DNA of 63,192 nt, counting the filler, from Globobulimina sp. (Eukaryota): the NCBI GenBank assembly GCA_003354225.1. It is 43 parts of 43 records of this genome, joined end to end, with 100 filler letters (N's around TTAATTAATTAA, not from the genome) between each part and the next. Parts side by side here need not be neighbours in the genome. Positions count along the whole stretch, not along the records: positions 30,922 to 32,293 come from PIVH01017762.1; 42 more parts are not named here. The stretch is one strand, 5' to 3'. Both the position numbers and the translations under genes were made by a program. Shown piece after piece: positions 1 through 54,161 of the stretch (positions within the stretch are counted from its first letter, which is position 1; each line of letters opens with the position of its first letter). The notes below the pieces were generated by a model. It was not told the origin of the DNA, did not search any database, and saw only the letters and a list, made by a program, of their open reading frames with translations.

Positions 1-18
1 TCCCAAGACTTTGATAAA

Positions 19-1194
19 ATGAATAAAATTCAGGTCACCTCCTCCCCTGCATATAATATAAAAACATTACCAATAAACTTTGATGTCTTTCTCTCTCCGG
101 CAAATCCGACCATTCCTATGGACAATAAAATAACCATCGCATTTACGGATGGTTCGTGCGCTCCAAATCCAGGTAAAGGAGGAGCTGCGGCCTATATTCC
201 ATCCCAACCATCCCATTTATACCCATTTAAACAAATATATTACTTTAAAATACCAGTAACAATAACTACAGCGGAAATAGAAGCTGTCCATATAATTCTA
301 AATCATATAATAAGTACTAATATAAACAAACATATACATTACAAAATTTACATTGATAATCTCCCTCTCCTCCAATTTATTAATGGCCAAAACTTCCCTA
401 AATATAATGATACAAAACTATTAATTGAAAATATCTTTATAAAATTATTACAAATAATGCAAATATCCCCAAATGTATTTATATCTTTTATTAAAATAAA
501 ATCACATAATAATAACATTTTTAATGATGAAGCGGATCGAATGGCAAATTTTGCAGCAAAGCATGCGAAATATGACCAATCATTATTCCACCAAATATCC
601 TATAACACCACAATAACTCAGCTACATAAACAAATCTATTTTCATTGGAGCCAACAATGGAAAAATAGAAACACCAAACCTGATCAAGACAGCTACAGAA
701 TGTACCAAATGAACCCTTCACTTCATGGTAAATTCAGTAAAATAATTAAATATTTAAATAAAGATGAATCTGCAATAATGAATAGAATTATATCTGGTCA
801 CATTGAGTTGAATGCGTTCCTATTTAAACATAAATATAAAGATACAGATAAAAGTGATATAATCTCTCCAATTTGCCAACAATGCCAATCTAATAAAATA
901 GAAACAATATATCATTATTTCATCAAATGCCAAGCATATAACCATCAGCGTCAACGAATGATTGCCTCTCTTCGTAATACCTGGATAGGATTCAATGATG
1001 GAAATGGATTTAGTTTGAATGACTTATTCTTTCCATACACAATCAGAAGACCTCCAGACATTGACAGAGAGCTGAACGTGATGACGCAAGTGGAAATATG
1101 GAAAAACCTTCTTCAGTTCGTGAAAGAAACAAAAAGATTTGACTACCTGTACCAAGTGGACCTAGCAAACCTATCACCAATACTATTGGATTAA
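19..1194 (+). mobile_element. 3' part of a non-LTR retrotransposon ORF2: RNase H domain plus C-terminal CCHC zinc knuckle
   Basis: RNase H motifs FTDGS, AEIEAV, YIDN, KSH..NDEADRMA, then RIISGH and C-x2-C...ETIYHYFIKC. A short 3' UTR ends in an A run at the contig end. Confidence 0.85.
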
Positions 1195-1373
1195 TGGTAA
1201 ACTATATATCCCTGATATATTAGTTCCAAATATTTTTATTTACCTTTGTTCATTGGCTTCGCCCCCAAATAAAAGGGCCTGTATCCTTGTATTGTATATA
1301 CTATTTATTAGTGTCTCTTGCTTGTGTATTAGGTGAAATCTTTAATTGATTTCCTAGTGTTTTGAAGAAAAAA

Positions 1374-1473
1374 NNNNNNNNNNNNNNNNNNNNNNNNNNN
1401 NNNNNNNNNNNNNNNNNTTAATTAATTAANNNNNNNNNNNNNNNNNNNNNNNNNNNNNNNNNNNNNNNNNNNN
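1374..1473. other. Artificial contig-joining linker N44-TTAATTAATTAA-N44 (first of 42)
   Basis: The identical 100-bp cassette recurs every 1471-1473 bp and carries stops in all frames. Contig starts: 1, 1474, 2947, 4420, 5893, 7366, 8839, 10312, 11785, 13258, 14730, 16202, 17674, 19146, 20618, 22090, 23562, 25034, 26506, 27978, 29450, 30922, 32394, 33866, 35338, 36810, 38282, 39754, 41226, 42698, 44170, 45641, 47112, 48583, 50054, 51525, 52996, 54467, 55938, 57409, 58880, 60351, 61822. Confidence 0.99.
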
Positions 1474-1722
1474 AGATTCCGTGGTCCCGGTGTTTTGTTG
1501 GGTCCAGTTCATTCCGCCATCTTCAGTGGTGTAGAGGATGCCGGCCTTACCACACAGCCAGCCGGTTTTTGGATTAACAAAGTCGCTATCATAAAAATTG
1601 GCAAACATCCTGGAATAATGCAGGGTCTCGCCCTGGTCTGCCGGACATTCCGGTGGCGCTGAAAGTACAATCAGGAATGTAACGATAAAAAAAACAGAAG
1701 CGATTGAGGTCTTATTTAACAT
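1474..1722 (-). CDS. Bacterial secreted YCF48/BNR-repeat beta-propeller protein, N-terminal fragment
   Basis: Signal-peptide-like N-terminus, F..SDFVNPKTGWLCGKAGILYTTEDGGMNW repeat, GGAG upstream of the ATG at 1722; truncated by the linker. Confidence 0.7.
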
Positions 1723-1767
1723 GGGGGGCGACTCCGTTTTCATGTGCATATGAAGTATCTATACAAA

Positions 1768-1933
1768 AAAACCTGAATTGAGCGTTTCCCATCTGGATCT
1801 GCACCCATACCCTGTACAGCAAGGTTTCGCAAAAAGTTCTCTATAAACCGGCAGATTGCCTGTTGATTTTGCAAACCTAACTGTCTCAGTATTTCGGCGC
1901 ATCTCTACACAAAAAACGTTCAATTCAGGTTTT
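1768..1933. repeat. Bacterial intergenic MITE/REP-like element with 20-bp terminal inverted repeats
   Basis: AAAACCTGAATTGAGCGTTT (1768-1787) matches the reverse complement of 1914-1933 at 19/20. A second internal IR pairs AGGTTTCGCAAAA with TTTTGCAAACCT. Confidence 0.65.
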
Positions 1934-10311: not shown

Positions 10312-11684
10312 CTTTAAGAAACCATTTAAAACATTCAAAACATACTTGATCCAAATTGAATATTTTCTGAATATAAATAGTTACCGAAGCTTCAAATCTT
10401 GCAAATGCATCGCCAATAATTTGATTATTGAATGGTTTCTTCCATAGAAATGTTATGTTATTAATAAAAGGCAACGGATTAAGGGTTGGATACATTGTTG
10501 GTGCGGATGTACACATTCCCATTGATATAAAATAAAAATAATAATATTTATTCAGCTCAGATTTATCTCTCAGTAACGTTCTGCTGTTGGCTGCATAATA
10601 ATAATTATTATAATTATGATGAACAACTCTTAAATAATATGTTTTGTCTCCTTGTAATGTGGTGGTAATTGTACTGGTTTTCTCATATGCATTGATATTG
10701 TCATTGTCAGCAATTACATCCCATTTATCGGAGACATAATTATATCCATATATTTCCAAAACAGTATCAAAATTTGAATATCGTGTATTAAAATTAACGA
10801 CTGTTTGGTTGTAAGCGTCAGGTATTTTTATGAGATAATAATGTCCATCATCAGCTGATATGGATGGTGTGGAAATATTATAATACTGCGAATCAATAAT
10901 ATCACCACAGGTTATTGTGCCTAATACAGGTGAATATGGGAAATGTGTTGCATTTATTGATGGATCAGTACGTAGTTTCTCAAATACATATGCAGAATCA
11001 CCACCATATGCGCCTATCAAAGCAGTGTTATTATAAATGGATACACTAAAACCAAACCCCTCATTTGCTGCACCATCACTAGCAACTAATTTTGCTGTTT
11101 GAATCCATATTTCGTGCCCTCTCTCATAGATATATGCGGAACCTGAAGAATAATTCATATCATCATCACGATATGCGCCCACCAAGGCAGTGTTATTATA
11201 AATGGATACACTTTGTCCAAAGTAATCATATGATGTACCATCACTAGCAACTAATTTTGCTGTTTGATTCCATCTTCCATTTACTTTCTCAAATATATAG
11301 GCAGAACCTGAAGCAGAATAAGTATTATTATTAATATCCAGATCATCACCATATGCGCCCACCAAAGCAATGTTATTACAAATGGATACACTCAAACCAA
11401 AATAATCACCACTAGCAACTAATTTTGCTGTTTGAATCCATGTTCCATTTACTTTCTCAAATATATATGCGGAATCTGAACCAGATGCGCCTATCAACAC
11501 AGCGTTATTATAAATGGATACACTAAGACCAAACCAATCACCATATTCACCATCACTGGCAACTAATTGTGCTGTTTGGCCCCATTCTCCATGTACTCGC
11601 TCATATATATATGCGGCACCTATCCCATTATTATCATAACTTGCGCCGATCACAGCAATGTTATCATAAATGGATACACTTCTT
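10312..11684 (-). CDS. FG-GAP repeat beta-propeller surface protein, internal fragment
   Basis: Tandem FG.SVSIYNN.ALVGAY...AYIFE....W.QTAKLVASDG repeats, then an FDTVLEIY...DND module. Confidence 0.85.
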
Positions 11685-22229: not shown

Positions 22230-22470
22230 TTAGCGACTGATTTGTCTGCCATCAGGCATTTTGGTGCGCCTAAGAAAACCGCTACGCAAATTGCATTTCA
22301 CCACACTTGCACCTTCGAAGTCCGCTCGCTCTAAAAAGGCCCCTCTAAAATTTGTATTTTCAATATGGGCATCGATGAACTTGGCTCTTTTTAATTTCGC
22401 ACCGGAAAAGTTAACCTTCTCCAACTTCGCACCGCTAAAATCTGCGCCTTCTAAACTAGTATGACTAAAA
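22230..22470 (-). CDS. Bacterial-type pentapeptide-repeat protein C-terminus, joined in frame to the Patched fragment
   Basis: ADFSG AKLEK VNFSG AKLKR AKFID AHIEN TNFRG AFLER ADFEG...TKMPDG; downstream DNA is more GC-rich. Confidence 0.75.
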
Positions 22471-23461
22471 TCCACATCAATAAATACGATTTGTATCTTT
22501 TCAATCACCGAACCCGACCATGCCTCCTCCGTTAAATCATAATAGGTCATCGAATAGCTGTCGTCGAGAAGGAACAAGCGCATATCCGATGAGGTTTCAA
22601 TTTTTGTTCCAAAATATGCAGAAACTCCAATCAATGCAATAAACACAACAATAACACACATTCTACCAACAAAACTCCTCAATACAGCAACGAACGTATA
22701 TTCTAAAACCCAATCCAATGAAAAACGTTTTGCAGACTGATGTATATCACTCTCATCGGTTTCGTTTTGATCCGCATCTTCTTCCACGGCTTGATGCGTA
22801 ATACACGGACAGCAAAAACTCCTATTTCGTTGTATCCGCTTATTATCATAAACCAATAATGGCACAAACAACAAAAATTGAAGCAAATAGTTACCGAGAA
22901 ATGAAAACGCCGCATAAAAACAAAAATATTCCAATCCCGGTAAGTCAGTAACGGTCCCTGCAAAAAATGCAATAATCGAACAAAATGAAGTCAACGTAAC
23001 TGCCACACCGCAATGTTTCAACGCCTTTCCTAACTGTTTCGCAGTAAATTGTTCATCGCTGTTTGCCATTTTTGTATGATTCACAGTGTCAACAATAATT
23101 ATCATATTATCCACACCTACGCCCAATAAAAGAAAGGGTACAACAAACACCAATGTGGAAAATTTGTTATCTAAATATGCACCGATACCAAACCCGAATA
23201 TCAACGCACAAAGTAACACAAATATCTGTATATTAATATATAATTTGAATTATATTTCTATTTTATATATTACGTAACTGAAGAACTTGCTAATAATGCC
23301 CTCATTCGTACACAGGAACCCAATGAGCCCAACGTCAACTGCACATAAACCAACATGACTCCAAAAGCAATGAGAAACATTTGGGCATCTCCTACCATGG
23401 TCGCTAACATCTCATCTTCGGTACCTATGGTGGAATAATATGCAGTGTCGAATTCAATATA
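22470..23461 (-). CDS. Patched/NPC1-family sterol-sensing-domain membrane protein fragment (intron about 23226-23278)
   Basis: PFLLLGVGVDNMIII, GVAVTLTS.CSIIAF..G, PGLEYFC.YAA, LQFLLFVPLLVYD.KR. Confidence 0.85.
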
Positions 23462-27977: not shown

Positions 27978-28155
27978 AATCTTTTTTTGAATCAAGAAAT
28001 TGCATAGTATCGATTACAATTTCAACTTTAAATCTTTTTTTCCCTTCCTGGTCTTCCCATCTCTTTTGTCTCAATTTTCCTTCAATAGCAATTTTACTGC
28101 CTTTATGACAATATTGAGCTATGATCTCAGCAAGTTTCGACCATGCTATGCAGTC
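27978..28155 (-). CDS. ssb: Bacterial single-stranded DNA-binding protein fragment
   Basis: FDCIAWSKLAEIIAQYCHKGSKIAIEGKLRQKRWEDQEGKKRFKVEIVIDTMQFLD is the second half of the SSB OB fold. Confidence 0.9.
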
Positions 28156-29349
28156 AAAATACTGTGCTGCAGTTTTATCATTTTGAATAGTTATTACTAT
28201 CCCATCCCCACTCTCTTGCGACGCAAACATAACTGCTGTTTCATAACTTAATGTCGTAGAACAAGGTCCACAAAATCGTTCTCGCACACCTTTAAACACC
28301 ATACACCGTGCAATACCGTGATAAAACTTGGAAATTTGGGAAAATGTCAACGTTGTACCAAAACACTCCACTGTTTCGCGCAAATAACGCCCCCAATGTG
28401 CATACACAGAATGCCTTTGTTTCAATGCTTCATCGCTCTCTGTTTCCGATAATCTCCTAAATGTAGCTGAAAATGCTGCTGATAGTTGCGTAAAATTACA
28501 ATACAACAACAATGATAATATATGTTTGACACTAATAGTTGAACCTACAGCCACATCATAGACAGCTTCCCATTTCGGGTTTGCACCGAGAACATTATGT
28601 TTGTTTGTATCGTGTTTCCATTTTGCTTTAATTTGTGTGTTCTTCAACTCAAATAAAGATATTTTTGTCAATCCATTTAATACTTCTTCTTTCATTGATT
28701 TATATTTTGGATGAATGTACCAAGACGAATACGTATAGTTCCTCCCACCGTCAATATCAATGTTTCCATCCTCGGGATAAATACCTAGCAAAGTCATGCT
28801 TTTGTTTGTATTATTTTTAAAATATGAATGATAATAATATCTAACCCCTGGAGAATACGTCGAATATTCTGAATTTTTGTTTTCTTCTTTTTTTGCTTCA
28901 TTGGTTGGGACTGATTTTGTCTTAATGTGTGTCACAAATTTGCTCCAACGATTGGGTCCATACAAGTTTCGCAGTTTTTTATTTTTGTGCTGGAGGTTAC
29001 AAATAATTTGCTTTATATTTTTATTTTGATGCAGGAAACGCAAACCTAAATCCGTAAGATGGTATTTATGACAATGTAATTGGTCTAACATTTGACATAT
29101 AACAATGGACCGATCAGATGTACATTGATGATATAAATTGGTTCTGTTTTTCAGGTTATTGTCATATTTATTTTTATCACGAAATATACGTTGAATAAAA
29201 TTACATTTTTGTAAATCACATCGATTAACATTTTGCTGAAAAGGAACACTTTCATCTTGAACATATTTAATAAAATCAGCGATAAAATAATTGATTTTTT
29301 TATTCGGATAAAGTTTGGATATTACACTAAATAAATCATTATCTTTTGT
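28150..29349 (-). CDS. ADP-ribosyltransferase-fold family member 2 (truncated by a chimeric junction before ExE)
   Basis: PKYKSMKEE, LLLYCNFT.LS..FS.TFRR, WGRYLRETVECFG, FYHGI, GPCSTT, GIVITI, YFDC; frame open from the contig end. Confidence 0.7.
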
Positions 29350-29537: not shown

Positions 29538-30282
29538 ATGGCATTTCAATTTAATGTGGCTAATAATGGCAGGAAAAGGCAAAGAAGAATGAGTGAAGAT
29601 AGCAATCATTCGTGCGATTTAAGTGGAAAGATTTCAAATTTACAAAATGTAATCGGTAATTTATTAATTAGGGCAGAAACTGTTCCGCCAAAAAGATTTA
29701 TTCATGATCCACCATCACATTCGCGGCATCATTTAAATTTCAATAAAGTAACATTTAAAAATAAAAATAAAAATAAAAGTAATGCAAATAAATACGTATG
29801 TAAATTGTAAAATAAATTGTATCTTTTTGATTTAATCTAAAATTAAATAGGTTTCATTTCAATTGAATAATAATGATAATAATAATAATAACAATGAAGA
29901 AGAAGAAGAACAAGAAATTGAAACAATAATCTCAGAGAATGATAAATATAAAAATGAAATTGATTTAATGTTCCATTCAAAAGAAAGAAAATTAAAAAAT
30001 GAGAAATGGAATGAAAATGAAAAAGAAACTCAAAAATTATTGCAACAAAGTCAAGAAATATTAAATGAAATTAAAAATATTGATATGATATTAATTAATA
30101 ATTCATTTAAATTAAAAAATGATTGGCTACGAATTAAAAATCAACAAAAGAAAATTGAAATGAATTCGGCAATAATTTATAATAAAATGTGTCAAATTGA
30201 AAATAAAAAATATAAACAACAATATAAAATTAATGCATTTTTAACAGTACTCAAAGAAACATATAACAACAATCAAAAATAA
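29538..30282 (+). CDS. Low-complexity coiled-coil protein, intron 29796-29850
   Basis: The 55-nt GT-AG intron joins NKY|VSFQLNNN in frame. Confidence 0.55.
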
Positions 30283-30921: not shown

Positions 30922-32288
30922 GAGATGCAGATATTTTAAATCCAAACTTTTGTTTATTTCCAGTATTCCAATTAAAATATTCAAATATGAACTCATTCAA
31001 ACAGATAATGATAAAAGTGAATGATAACAATGATATTCAAAATAAACAATATATAAATGAATTGATACACAGAGTAAAAACATTATTTTTATCAGAAATT
31101 GGAGCAAATGAATATTTTCATATTATTGATGCTTTTGGTTTGCTTGAAAATATAAATGAAATGTTGAGTGAATATAAAAATATGTTAATATGTGGAATTA
31201 AGCTAAATAATAATATTTTAATCTGTTTATTACATCATTTAATTCGTAATGGAGAAGCTCAAAATGTTGCTGGTATTTGGAATGATGTAATCAAACAAAA
31301 TATAATTATAAATTCATTGGCATTTCAATCATTAATATTATGTGTGAATAGATCGAGAAATGTGGATAATAATAATATATTGCTCACGATGTGGAATTTT
31401 ATTGTCAATCAACAAAAATTGAAACCAAATTTGCATTGTTATTGTTTGGCTGTTTTATCATTTTCAAAATATTCTGATGTGGAAAATCGTAATATGGCAA
31501 AGCAATTATTGTCTGATTTAGAATCAAATAAAGAAATGATGTGTTTGTTAGCCGCAAATAATTTACAATTGATTCAAATACTAAACAGCTATGGAAATCT
31601 GAATGAAGTTAATAAAATGTGGTCATTTTATAACGATTATATTGAAAAATGGAACAATGGCAAGCATGATATTTATGCATTGATAGTTTGTGCCTCGAGC
31701 GAAATATCCAAACATGAATTGAATGATATTTTAAATATTATCGATAATGACAAATATTTTAATTTGAATAAAGATTTGTCCATTGATCAATTGATTGTGT
31801 TCCATCGCATTGCAGTAAAATGCAATCATACAATACAAGAAAAACTATGGTCCATTTTACAGCGCAAAGCGGAAAAAGAAAAGATAAAAACAAATGTTTT
31901 CTCTTTTTTTGAATTAAATGGAAAACGATATTCAATCTCCACAGGGTATGAGATTGGTGGCTGTTTATTCAATTCCAATGACAGAGTCGACGCTTTGATA
32001 AAAGAGATTGGATATGATATAAATACATCGGATTGCACAGAATTATCATCAGAAATTGCAAAGAAAAAACATTTAAAAAGTCATTCGGAAAAGAAAGCAT
32101 TGGCCATATTATTAAAACAAGAACAAAACACTAAAGAGATAAAAATCAAAGTCTCGAAGAAAATGTGTATAGATTGTCATCAATTCTTTTGCCAAGTATC
32201 TAAAATCTACAATCAACACAATATTCAATGTGTAGACCCGAAAGGCATCCATCTCTTCAAAAATGGAATTTGCTGTTTGTGCAATTAA
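30922..32288 (+). CDS. Pentatricopeptide-repeat protein with C-terminal DYW-type cytidine deaminase domain (5' truncated)
   Basis: About 35-aa helical repeats (FHIIDAFG....INEM..EYKNM...GIKLN; KPNLHCYCLAV.SFSK; ILNSYGNLNEVNKMW.FY), then S.FELNGK, GY, HSEKKALA, KVSKKMCIDCH.FF..VS, D.KGIHLFKNGIC. Confidence 0.88.
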
Positions 32289-32394
32289 CGACGNNNNNNN
32301 NNNNNNNNNNNNNNNNNNNNNNNNNNNNNNNNNNNNNTTAATTAATTAANNNNNNNNNNNNNNNNNNNNNNNNNNNNNNNNNNNNNNNNNNNNG

Positions 32395-39753: not shown

Positions 39754-41125
39754 CTCCCTCCCATTCGAACCACAACTTGCGTAATATTCTCGTCGCTGAA
39801 TTTAAATCCCTTTTCTTGCCAATATTGCATTAAATTGTTGCCGCCGGGGAATGGATCCTTTATGGTACGGTCCGAATTGATGCTTAATAGTGTACCATAA
39901 ACGTGTTTGTTTATCGATTCCTTATTTTCATTCTCTGCAATAATAGCATTGGTTGCGTCATTCGGATCGATGCAATTTGCAACAATCACTTGCAACTCTT
40001 TTGTATTGTCGTTCACATTCAATCGAGTCACAAAATCCAGGCTTCGATGTTTGGTTTCTTGCCACACCGAATATCTCTTCACCGGCTCAAAGTTAATGGA
40101 CTTATTCACATTTTGCAAATTGGGCCAAGTCATAGCTAACCGGCCCGTTGCCGTACTCGTCTGTAACACGCACGAATGGATCCTGTCAATGTCAAAATAT
40201 TTATCTTTGGCAGTCATTCGCGGCAACGGCTCCACATAAGTTTGCAGGAATTTTGTCAATGTCCGATATTCCATAATAATCCCCGGCAATGGGTGCAAAT
40301 CGATCATTTGCTGCAAAACTTCAGATTTCGTAGACAATTGCACTGCTTTTTTATTCTTATTTTCCCGCTGCTTCTTATTTGCAATCAGCACAGCTTTTCG
40401 CGGCGGCGCTAATTTTAGCACATTAAATAAAATATGACTGCATTCTTTGGGTGAGGATAAGTTAAATTTGCGTCCAACCAAAGTATATGCCATGGTCGAT
40501 AAGTACTCAATTTTGCAATTCAGCTCAATTTCGTACCGCTTTGCTAGTTTGGCGTCGAAACCAATGCCGTGATATTCCATATCGATTAAGACATTAATTA
40601 ATTTGGTCTCCACCAACAAAAATGAGCGCAATAACTTCCTCCGATACAATGTACTGAGCATAAAGTGCATACATAGCCATATTTTCCAACAATGCAAGCC
40701 ATGGTCACGCGACACTGTGCTCAGTGCTTTTTTGCCCGGCGGGACGGTCACTAATTGGTCATGAATCTCGATGTTTGTATTTAGTAATTTGCGCTGTGCT
40801 TCTAACACATTTGGACACCAACAGCCAAATATATCGCACATATTATGTGTTTTTGTAGTGCTCGATACCAAATCCGGCTCAATTAACCAATGCGCAATGC
40901 GCGGATCCCATATTTTGCCTTTTATGTCAATACCAATACGCCGCAGTATTTCTATCTGCATTTTGCTGTTGTACGATATCTTGATAGTGCGCGGATTCTC
41001 AAATACGCCAACAATATCACTCCAAATCGCAGGCTTACGCACAAAACCCGACACTTTACGCAAAATATGATTTAATTCAATGATATAACTCCGTTTGGAC
41101 GACCATGAAATTGCAAATCCACCAA
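39754..41125 (-). CDS. Family A DNA polymerase, Pol theta-like, internal fragment
   Basis: DPRIAHWLIEPD, DMEYHGIGFD, FNLSSPK....LF..LKL, STKSEVL, HPLPGIIMEYR.LTK, TATGRL....PNLQN, followed by a long insertion as in Pol theta. Confidence 0.85.
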
Positions 41126-54094: not shown

Positions 54095-54161
54095 CTGTCG
54101 CCACAGGATTCGAACTTGTATCTTCTGGATTAATCCAGTGCTCTGCTTGAGCTATGCGACC
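54095..54161 (-). pseudogene. tRNA-derived element or tRNA pseudogene with a 4-nt anticodon loop
   Basis: GGTCGCA TAGCTC AAGCA GAGC A CTGGA TTAA TCCAG AAGAT ACAAG TTCGAAT CCTGT GGCGAC: acceptor, D, anticodon and T stems all pair; A-box-like and B-box (GTTCGAATCC) motifs present. Confidence 0.7.

Follow-up and report, generated by a model that had tools for sequence, protein, structure and literature searches.

A tail-less PPR-DYW deaminase gene in a Globobulimina assembly, a candidate mitochondrial RNA editing factor

A partial PPR-DYW gene on one contig

We analysed a 63,192-nt stretch of the Globobulimina sp. assembly GCA_003354225.1 (hereafter the window), one contig of which carries a 5'-partial gene predicted to encode a pentatricopeptide repeat (PPR) protein with a DYW-type cytidine deaminase domain. 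PPR-DYW proteins are the enzymes of cytidine-to-uridine (C-to-U) editing in plant organelles, and the original prediction had proposed this gene as a candidate organellar RNA-editing factor in a non-plant eukaryote. The map of N runs reveals that the window is not one locus; rather, it is made of 43 unrelated contigs of 1371-1373 bp each, joined by filler of the form N44-ttaattaattaa-N44. Genes on either side of a spacer are unlinked. According to the same map and the contig table, the contig with the PPR-DYW open reading frame (ORF) spans positions 30922..32293 (1372 bp, GC content of 27.3%), and coordinate 30922 is the contig's base 1 and nothing more.

The coding sequence lies at 30924..32288 on the plus strand and reads as 454 codons followed by a TAA stop (32286-32288), with no intron-like interruption, as had been remarked at the outset. 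Residues are numbered on this 454-residue translation, referred to as P0001, which starts at nt 30924. The frame is open back to the opening bases of the contig (30924), and the 21 residues that precede the first ATG (30987) can be aligned with relatives, so the 5' end of the gene has been lost at the contig end. A contig from run X3 that carries a ~95%-identical copy reaches 584 bases farther upstream. At the base composition of the contig, the chance of 454 stop-free codons is 6e-20.

The deaminase domain and its catalytic site

Pfam, PDB profile matches, and a structure model place a DYW-type cytidine deaminase domain, including an inserted "gating" region, at residues 324-454 (31893..32285, plus strand). 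P0001 matches positions 1-88 of the 93 in the Pfam profile DYW_deaminase (PF14432) at 44.4 bits (E 1.5e-11), well over the cut-off of 24, a check that had been suggested beforehand, and the same profile is above its cut-off in 15/15 close relatives. A PDB profile search, queried with P0001 and its first four relatives, returns the DYW domain of OTP86 (7o4e, E 4.7e-12), DYW1 (7w86, E 4.3e-10), and a synthetic PPR-DYW protein (9kfx, E 1.4e-9).

The AlphaFold2 model of P0001, based on an 82-row alignment (predicted local distance difference test score [pLDDT] of 93.3, predicted template modelling score of 0.90), has 17 helices followed by an alpha/beta domain (324-454), and in this predicted structure the deaminase fold carries the gating insertion as in OTP86. 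Its best PDB match by Foldseek is 9kfx_A (E 1.4e-10). With VIA-align, the same synthetic PPR-DYW structure aligns over 407 residues at Z 22.3, covering residues 4-454 of the model, and the OTP86 DYW domain (7o4f_A) aligns at Z 16.1 with a root-mean-square deviation of 2.7 Å (124/136 residues; model 324-454 corresponding to OTP86 825-958), followed by DYW1 (7w86) at Z 15.4.

The residues expected of an active site are all present. H387-S-E389 (32082..32090, plus strand; H387-S-E389-K being nt 32082-32093) aligns with OTP86 H892/E894, i.e. the catalytic zinc ligand and the proton-shuttle glutamate, and C415-I-D-C418-H419 (32166..32180, plus strand) aligns with OTP86 C920, C923, and H924, with C415 and C418 as catalytic-zinc cysteines and H419 as the first histidine of a second zinc site. 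Across the 25-row clade to which P0001 belongs in the phylogeny described below, H387, E389, and C415 are each kept in 25/25 rows, C418 and H443 in 24/25, and H419 in 23/25. The three motifs that had first drawn attention to the gene (HSEK, CIDCH, and H.F.NG.C..C) are thus found at 32082-32093, 32166-32180, and 32250-32285. The sequence profile, the predicted structure, and the intact catalytic residues together support the assignment of P0001 to the PPR-DYW family of RNA cytidine deaminases, in agreement with the original prediction.

Two parts of the domain depart from the plant form. The plant PG box (P-G-x-S-W-I-E-V-x-G-x-x-H-x-F) is absent from P0001; its counterpart, located by alignment with plant-type domains and by the strands of the model, is I-K-T-N-V-F-S-F-F-E-L-N-G-K-R-Y-S-I-S (31884..31940, plus strand), which has N-V instead of the plant P-G and forms the first two strands of the deaminase fold in the AlphaFold2 model (E326-331 and E334-339). 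In the 25-row clade, N324 is found in 22/25 rows and V or I at position 325 in 23/25, and the lysine that precedes the PG box is retained in 12 of the 16 clade rows where the alignment extends that far.

The other departure is the C-terminal zinc-knuckle region, which sequence and alignment identify as H443-L-F-K-N-G-I-C450-C-L-C453-N454 (32250..32285, plus strand). Compared with the plant C-x-C, C450-x-x-C453 has one extra residue, and P0001 stops one residue past the last cysteine; the ending ICCLCN, described earlier as lacking the DYW tripeptide, is read directly in the sequence ahead of the TAA at 32286-32288. The knuckle recurs in the 25-row clade (C450 in 22/25 rows, L452 in 20/25, and C453 in 23/25), where the tail past the last cysteine has a median of 1 residue and does not exceed 4 residues in 21/25 rows, with a tryptophan in 0/25.

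The PPR-like module

Upstream of the deaminase, residues 22-318 (30987..31877, plus strand) form a conserved PPR-like helical module, as delimited by the AlphaFold2 model, PPR structures, and hhalign. The 17 helices are predicted to build ~8 helix-hairpin repeats with a spacing of 35-43 residues and a pLDDT mostly >90. A designer PLS-type PPR protein (5iww_D) aligns to it in VIA-align at Z 17.7 (277 residues at 4.2 Å), and maize PPR10 is matched weakly by the family profile (E 1.1e-4, profile positions 72-174).

When 15 family members are compared with 19 plant-type proteins by hhalign, the two groups are collinear over residues 60-451 (368 columns, 99.8%, E 7e-30), and once the deaminase domain is cut from both sides the helical part still matches the plant-type PPR/E region (216 columns, 95.6%, E 1.2e-8). 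The module is therefore collinear with the plant-type region immediately ahead of the DYW domain. These repeats had been described as degenerate and PPR-like; they score under the Pfam cut-off, yet the predicted fold (5iww_D) and hhalign agree with that description, and, as modelled and aligned, they are true PPR-type repeats that the Pfam models miss.

The Pfam cut-off for PPR or PPR_2 is reached in 7 of the 15 close relatives, and the Eplus_motif has no Pfam match in any of the 15. The best-scoring PPR stretch precedes the shared ~450-residue module in P0004, P0006, P0007, P0008, and P0013 (681-1139 residues) and falls at or within it in P0012 and P0014. The contig probably holds the conserved rear part of such a protein, with a variable PPR array upstream.

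Relatives and phylogenetic position

Only four relatives are recovered by a word-indexed search (identities of 55, 54, 53, and 39%). A profile scan of 1.84 billion representatives yields 997 at E <= 1e-3, 117 at <= 1e-10, and 47 at <= 1e-30. Among 30 representatives checked, five are EukProt transcripts of the foraminifer Nonionella stella (P0005, P0007, P0013, P0027, and P0095), two are from angiosperms (Juncus effusus P0094 and Aristolochia fimbriata P0146), and one cluster includes a Tetraselmis striata protein; the label "foraminifer-like", as used here, refers to Nonionella and to no other taxon. Within the window, a tblastn search with 7 family proteins finds this contig only, and 0/42 other contigs carry a relative.

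A scan of metagenomes reveals 20 loci, among which only one (L001) is close (71% over residues 363-454); it begins inside the gene, with nothing upstream. Another of these loci (L002) contains, at 397-1927 (+), a C-S-C short-tail relative in two frames (397-906 and 953-1927) that lie ~46 bases apart, a split consistent with a short intron or a frameshift.

The maximum-likelihood tree contains 102 full-length DYW domains (141 columns), taken from the top 150 profile matches plus cluster members; it is unrooted, its rows are biased toward the family of P0001, and the plants named in it are two. Juncus, Aristolochia, and Nonionella P0095 fall in a 42-row plant-type clade (support 100/99) with tails of C-S-C-x-D-Y-W or alike. 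P0001 is placed in a 10-row clade (97/90), itself part of the 25-row clade (99/94) whose members end in C-x-x-C and have tails ending G-x-C-x-L-C, and this in turn belongs to a 51-row clade (100/97). The row closest to P0001 is Nonionella stella P0007 (71% over 133 columns), with a weak sister pairing (98/42), and all named members of the P0001 clade are from this foraminifer.

The phylogeny, called for when the gene was first noticed, finds no nesting of P0001 among the sampled plant-type rows (51-row clade 100/97 vs plant-type 42-row clade 100/99); as aligned here, the tree shows P0001 outside the sampled plant-type sequences. Given that this tree is biased and unrooted, the clade of P0001 may nonetheless have an ancient origin within plant diversity, and a plant-diversity origin for non-plant DYW clusters is proposed in a 2026 survey (PMC13386178; this and the other papers cited by PMC number are represented here by parts of their text).

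The Nonionella stella transcriptome itself holds three DYW types. The first (P0007, P0013, and P0005) is tail-less with C-x-L-C, the second (P0027) has C-S-C and a short tail with no tryptophan, and the third (P0095 and P0160) is plant-like, ends C-I-C-N-D-N-Y, and lies within the plant-type clade.

Host origin and selection

An AT-rich composition similar to that of the other contigs had been noted at first. At third codon positions, the ORF has a GC content (GC3) of 0.25, within the 0.20-0.49 spanned by 20 other long ORFs of the window, and its relative synonymous codon usage correlates with that of the pooled other ORFs at r = 0.88 (0.32-0.88 for the 20 others). Long ORFs on other contigs of the window match eukaryotic families, i.e. 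Patched/sterol-sensing, P2X receptor, CAP-Gly, S28 peptidase, and sugar transporter. The best matches of the sugar-transporter contig (78% and 70%) are EukProt entries numbered in the style of Nonionella, a likeness by numbering only, and the next matches are at 40-45%. Three studies have runs that contain pieces of the PPR-DYW contig, with an identity of 99-100% in X1 and, across its full length, ~95% in X3. The codon usage and the position of P0001 in the tree, outside the plant-type clade and with Nonionella stella as nearest named relative, indirectly support a non-plant host, and not a plant contaminant.

The gene is under purifying selection. Among 40 listed differences from the X3 copy (14 more are unlisted), 22 are synonymous and 18 non-synonymous, and these 40 give a ratio of non-synonymous to synonymous differences per site (pN/pS) of ~0.18 (249 synonymous and 1113 non-synonymous sites). 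From residue 324 onward, 13 of the 17 listed differences are synonymous.

A 59-nt segment at 32052-32110 (H-L-K-S-H-S-E-K-K-A-L-A) is also present on contigs of X1, X2, and X4 that diverge on both sides of it, and these shared loose ends suggest at least one common paralogue.

Proposed function and alternatives

We propose, with a probability of roughly 0.6, that P0001 is a mitochondrial RNA editing factor of a foraminifer-like eukaryote, i.e. a tail-less PPR-DYW deaminase whose most likely function would be site-specific C-to-U editing of mitochondrial transcripts. The contig would then represent at most the 3' two thirds of a nuclear gene from an AT-rich foraminifer-like eukaryote, and the part present would comprise ~8 degenerate PPR-like hairpins, collinear with the last PPR/E1/E2 of plant factors, followed by a complete deaminase domain. 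Sequence-specific binding of a mitochondrial transcript would fall to a variable PPR array upstream, of the kind present in longer relatives, and the conserved module would position the deaminase. At the first zinc site, formed by H387, C415, and C418 and with E389 shuttling protons, a single cytidine would be deaminated to uridine. A second, structural zinc site would be made of H419, H443, C450, and C453, the "DYW motif" being reduced to a putative G-x-C-x-L-C zinc knuckle that lacks D-Y-W. We infer this mechanism from plant and heterolobosean systems, and with it the RNA substrate, the mitochondrial location, the C-to-U activity, and the zinc binding at the altered knuckle. The main argument for activity is the strict retention of catalytic and candidate zinc ligands across the aligned clade.

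Several observations weigh against this proposal, and the main argument against activity is the loss of the DYW tripeptide, which is absent from P0001 (it ends C-C-L-C-N and a stop) and from 25/25 clade members. In OTP86, the ligands of the second, structural zinc are H924, H947, C954, and C956, with W960 stacking on H924 and D958 bonding K928 (PMC7611903); the tryptophan and aspartate of the plant tripeptide stabilise this second site, and mutants lose or lower editing (PMC7611903). The counterpart of K928 is C or A in the clade and is not conserved. Because the N-terminus of P0001 lies beyond the contig end, a targeting peptide and an upstream PPR array are out of view, and a crude presequence rule, by which residues 1-20 must contain two or more K/R and lack D/E, gives no separation between the family (9/27) and sugar-transporter controls (25/110).

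In the module, the Pfam PPR models score P0001 under their cut-off (PPR_2, 16.7 bits vs 30), the E_motif is found at E <= 0.001 in none of the 15 close relatives, and the repeat residues at the specificity position, read by eye, are hydrophobic (F, I), which differs from canonical base-reading PPRs. As for the organisms, the foraminiferal mitogenome paper leaves C-to-U editing unmentioned in the portion available (PMC10127745), and Acrasis and Naegleria are reported to have 11-12 DYW genes and two confirmed sites each (PMC4202320). Given so few sites, many DYW proteins of the heterolobosean type may, by analogy, do something else.

Part of this evidence would also fit a host PPR-DYW member that has turned into a non-editing organellar RNA factor, one that might take part in stabilising, cleaving, or splicing transcripts or might assist a separate deaminase on which it depends. 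We consider such a change of role unlikely, if still deserving of weight. It would be in keeping with the missing D-Y-W in 25/25 clade members and the unconserved K928 counterpart, considering that the tryptophan and aspartate matter for plant activity (PMC7611903), and with a conserved module that, by eye, is without canonical specificity residues; for the heterolobosean DYW genes, which far outnumber the known sites, the authors also propose other roles (PMC4202320). However, the histidine, the glutamate, and C415 are kept in 25/25 clade rows, C418 in 24/25, and the candidate ligands of the second zinc in 22-24/25, and the deaminase domain is itself under purifying selection, with 13/17 listed differences synonymous. 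Because all catalytic residues are retained, it is unlikely that catalysis was abandoned long ago.

It appears improbable that the enzyme instead targets DNA, for example, or RNA of cytosolic or foreign origin, acting as a mutator or defence factor like other deaminases of its superfamily. The resemblance to the bacterial DYW-like toxin SsdA (7jtu_A, Z 12.8; profile E 0.001), the strong expansion of the family (47 representatives at E <= 1e-30), and the failure of the crude presequence rule to show a targeting signal (9/27 vs 25/110 controls) are in its favour, but RNA-bound PPR-DYW structures match the whole protein far better (9kfx_A, Z 22.3), and OTP86 (Z 16.1) outscores SsdA. PPR tracts also bind single-stranded organellar RNA, which counts against such a substrate.

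Contamination by a land plant, alga, prey, or symbiont is slightly less probable still, and thus very unlikely, as the source of the contig. A 1372-bp contig with no intron and no linked host gene leaves room for this, and foraminiferal samples often hold other organisms (PMC10127745); the Nonionella transcriptome may itself include foreign sequences. By contrast, branches with support of 100/99 and 100/97 split P0001 from the plant-type clade of Juncus and Aristolochia, and the codon usage is that of the window (GC3 of 0.25, r = 0.88 against its other ORFs). The sugar-transporter contig also finds its best matches (78% and 70%) in entries that are Nonionella-like by numbering only, and pieces of the PPR-DYW contig appear in runs of three studies. 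Finally, a decaying pseudogene fragment or chance open frame, compatible with the incomplete 5' end and with the lack of an RNA-recorded run among those listed, is extremely unlikely in view of 454 stop-free codons (probability 6e-20), a pN/pS of ~0.18 against the 95% copy, key residues that are all intact, and a truncation that falls exactly at the contig end, beyond which the X3 contig extends 584 bases upstream.

Returning to a mitochondrial editing factor as the preferred reading, a broader proposal is that Foraminifera run plant-type mitochondrial C-to-U editing, as yet unreported for them, via an expanded tail-less DYW clade, with a C-x-L-C knuckle and a long conserved PPR-like module replacing E1/E2; this is tentative, and we would put it somewhat short of an even chance. 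If true, the tail-less domain would be stabilised and gated otherwise than the plant enzyme, and it would represent a compact natural scaffold for RNA base editing. If active, the clade would reveal which parts of the DYW motif are dispensable, and this bears on the engineering of small RNA base editors.

The difficulty of recognising mitochondrial genes and ribosomal RNAs (rRNAs) in foraminifera might also be due in part to editing. The foraminiferal mitogenome paper describes a frameshift conserved in cox1, an nad1 that is split, and a lack of rRNAs (PMC10127745), and the part of it available reports that the two foraminiferal genome data sets already published yielded no mitochondrial genes (PMC10127745). 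With a DYW family that is both expanded and maintained by selection, RNA editing in foraminiferal mitochondria becomes a concrete prediction that is cheap to check, and the non-plant PPR-DYW finds made so far (Naegleria, Acrasis, and paradinids) have each foretold editing that was later detected.

Other features of the window

The remaining contigs carry several features of their own. A single ORF at 22233-23249 (-) pairs a sterol-sensing/Patched domain (residues 8-151) with pentapeptide repeats (256-320), an unusual combination. Two contig-filling ORFs, at 27979-29349 (-) and 39756-41123 (-), have replication domains of bacterial or organellar type; one has a C-terminal SSB domain, and a family A DNA polymerase domain is found in the other, whose contig has the highest GC content of the window (0.41) and whose codon usage shows low similarity to the rest (r of 0.42). 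These two could be organelle-targeted host genes or foreign DNA.

At 10313-11683 (-), FG-GAP_2 repeats (E 8e-63) make up a 457-residue frame that is open at either contig end, and an RNase H domain at 1-1191 (+), in a frame open at base 1 of the window, is possibly part of a retroelement. The contig adjoining that of the PPR-DYW gene has, at 29863-30282 (+), a low-complexity ORF whose first part is made of N and E stretches, as is usual in eukaryotic genomes of very high AT content. A transfer RNA (tRNA) is matched by Rfam at 54095-54161 (-) with 36 bits against a gathering score of 29, and ARAGORN reports zero tRNAs window-wide.

Comparison with known systems

Land-plant PPR-DYW factors (OTP86, 7o4e/7o4f; DYW1, 7w86; and the synthetic 9kfx) have the same order of parts as P0001, a PPR-type helical tract followed by a DYW-type deaminase, and a fold in common with its predicted structure (Z 22.3 for 9kfx, 16.1 for OTP86, and 15.4 for DYW1), with a sequence identity of 23-24% between the P0001 domain and that of OTP86. 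The shared features are H-x-E, C-x-x-C-H, H-x-F-x-x-G, the lysine ahead of the PG box, and the gating region. Unlike the plant proteins, P0001 has no D-Y-W, carries C-x-L-C in place of C-S-C (a one-residue insertion), and has N-V for P-G, and its family conserves ~300 residues of helical repeats, as opposed to the variable PLS triplets of plants.

Non-plant nuclear PPR-DYW families with lineage-specific expansion are likewise present in Naegleria gruberi, Acrasis kona, and Physarum polycephalum. In Naegleria and Acrasis, the PPR-DYW genes are tied to experimentally confirmed mitochondrial C-to-U sites (PMC4202320, PMC4758236). The Acrasis proteins differ in that they are described as retaining a recognisable PG box and an E/E+/DYW domain (PMC4202320). 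The paradinids (Ascetosporea, Rhizaria) belong to the same supergroup as foraminifera, and a 2025 paper reports their mitochondrial C-to-U editing by RNA-seq together with PPR-DYW transcripts (PMC11946409). Their sequences reportedly cluster with fungal DYW proteins, with which they share a two-residue deletion (PMC11946409), as opposed to the C-terminal insertion and truncation of the P0001 clade; foraminifera receive 0 mentions in that paper (PMC11946409).

The DYW:KP domains of hornworts, lycophytes, and ferns, which are candidate U-to-C editors, offer a precedent for a variant that marks a functional subclass (PMC7611903, PMC13386178). The clade of P0001 differs from them at the C-terminal zinc knuckle, and nothing in it indicates reverse editing (the KP signature was not examined). 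SsdA (7jtu, 9c63), a DYW-like toxin of bacterial type VI secretion, shares the deaminase core (Z 12.7-12.8, 123-125 residues at 23% identity). Secreted by bacteria and not a eukaryotic repeat protein, it has no PPR tract and is a poorer match than plant DYW domains.

The original prediction had described PPR-DYW proteins as occurring only sporadically outside land plants, a view that is now dated: in NCBI nr, the 2026 survey finds 31 rhizarian DYW domains (PMC13386178), to which the editing of paradinids is to be added (PMC11946409). The same survey finds the PG box and the DYW tripeptide to be variable in non-plants (PMC13386178). Our literature search, supplementary tables aside and not targeted at the tail-less C-x-L-C variant, found no description of DYW proteins in foraminifera. 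PPR-DYW proteins outside plants are already well known, and the distinct variant here is the tail-less C-x-L-C clade.

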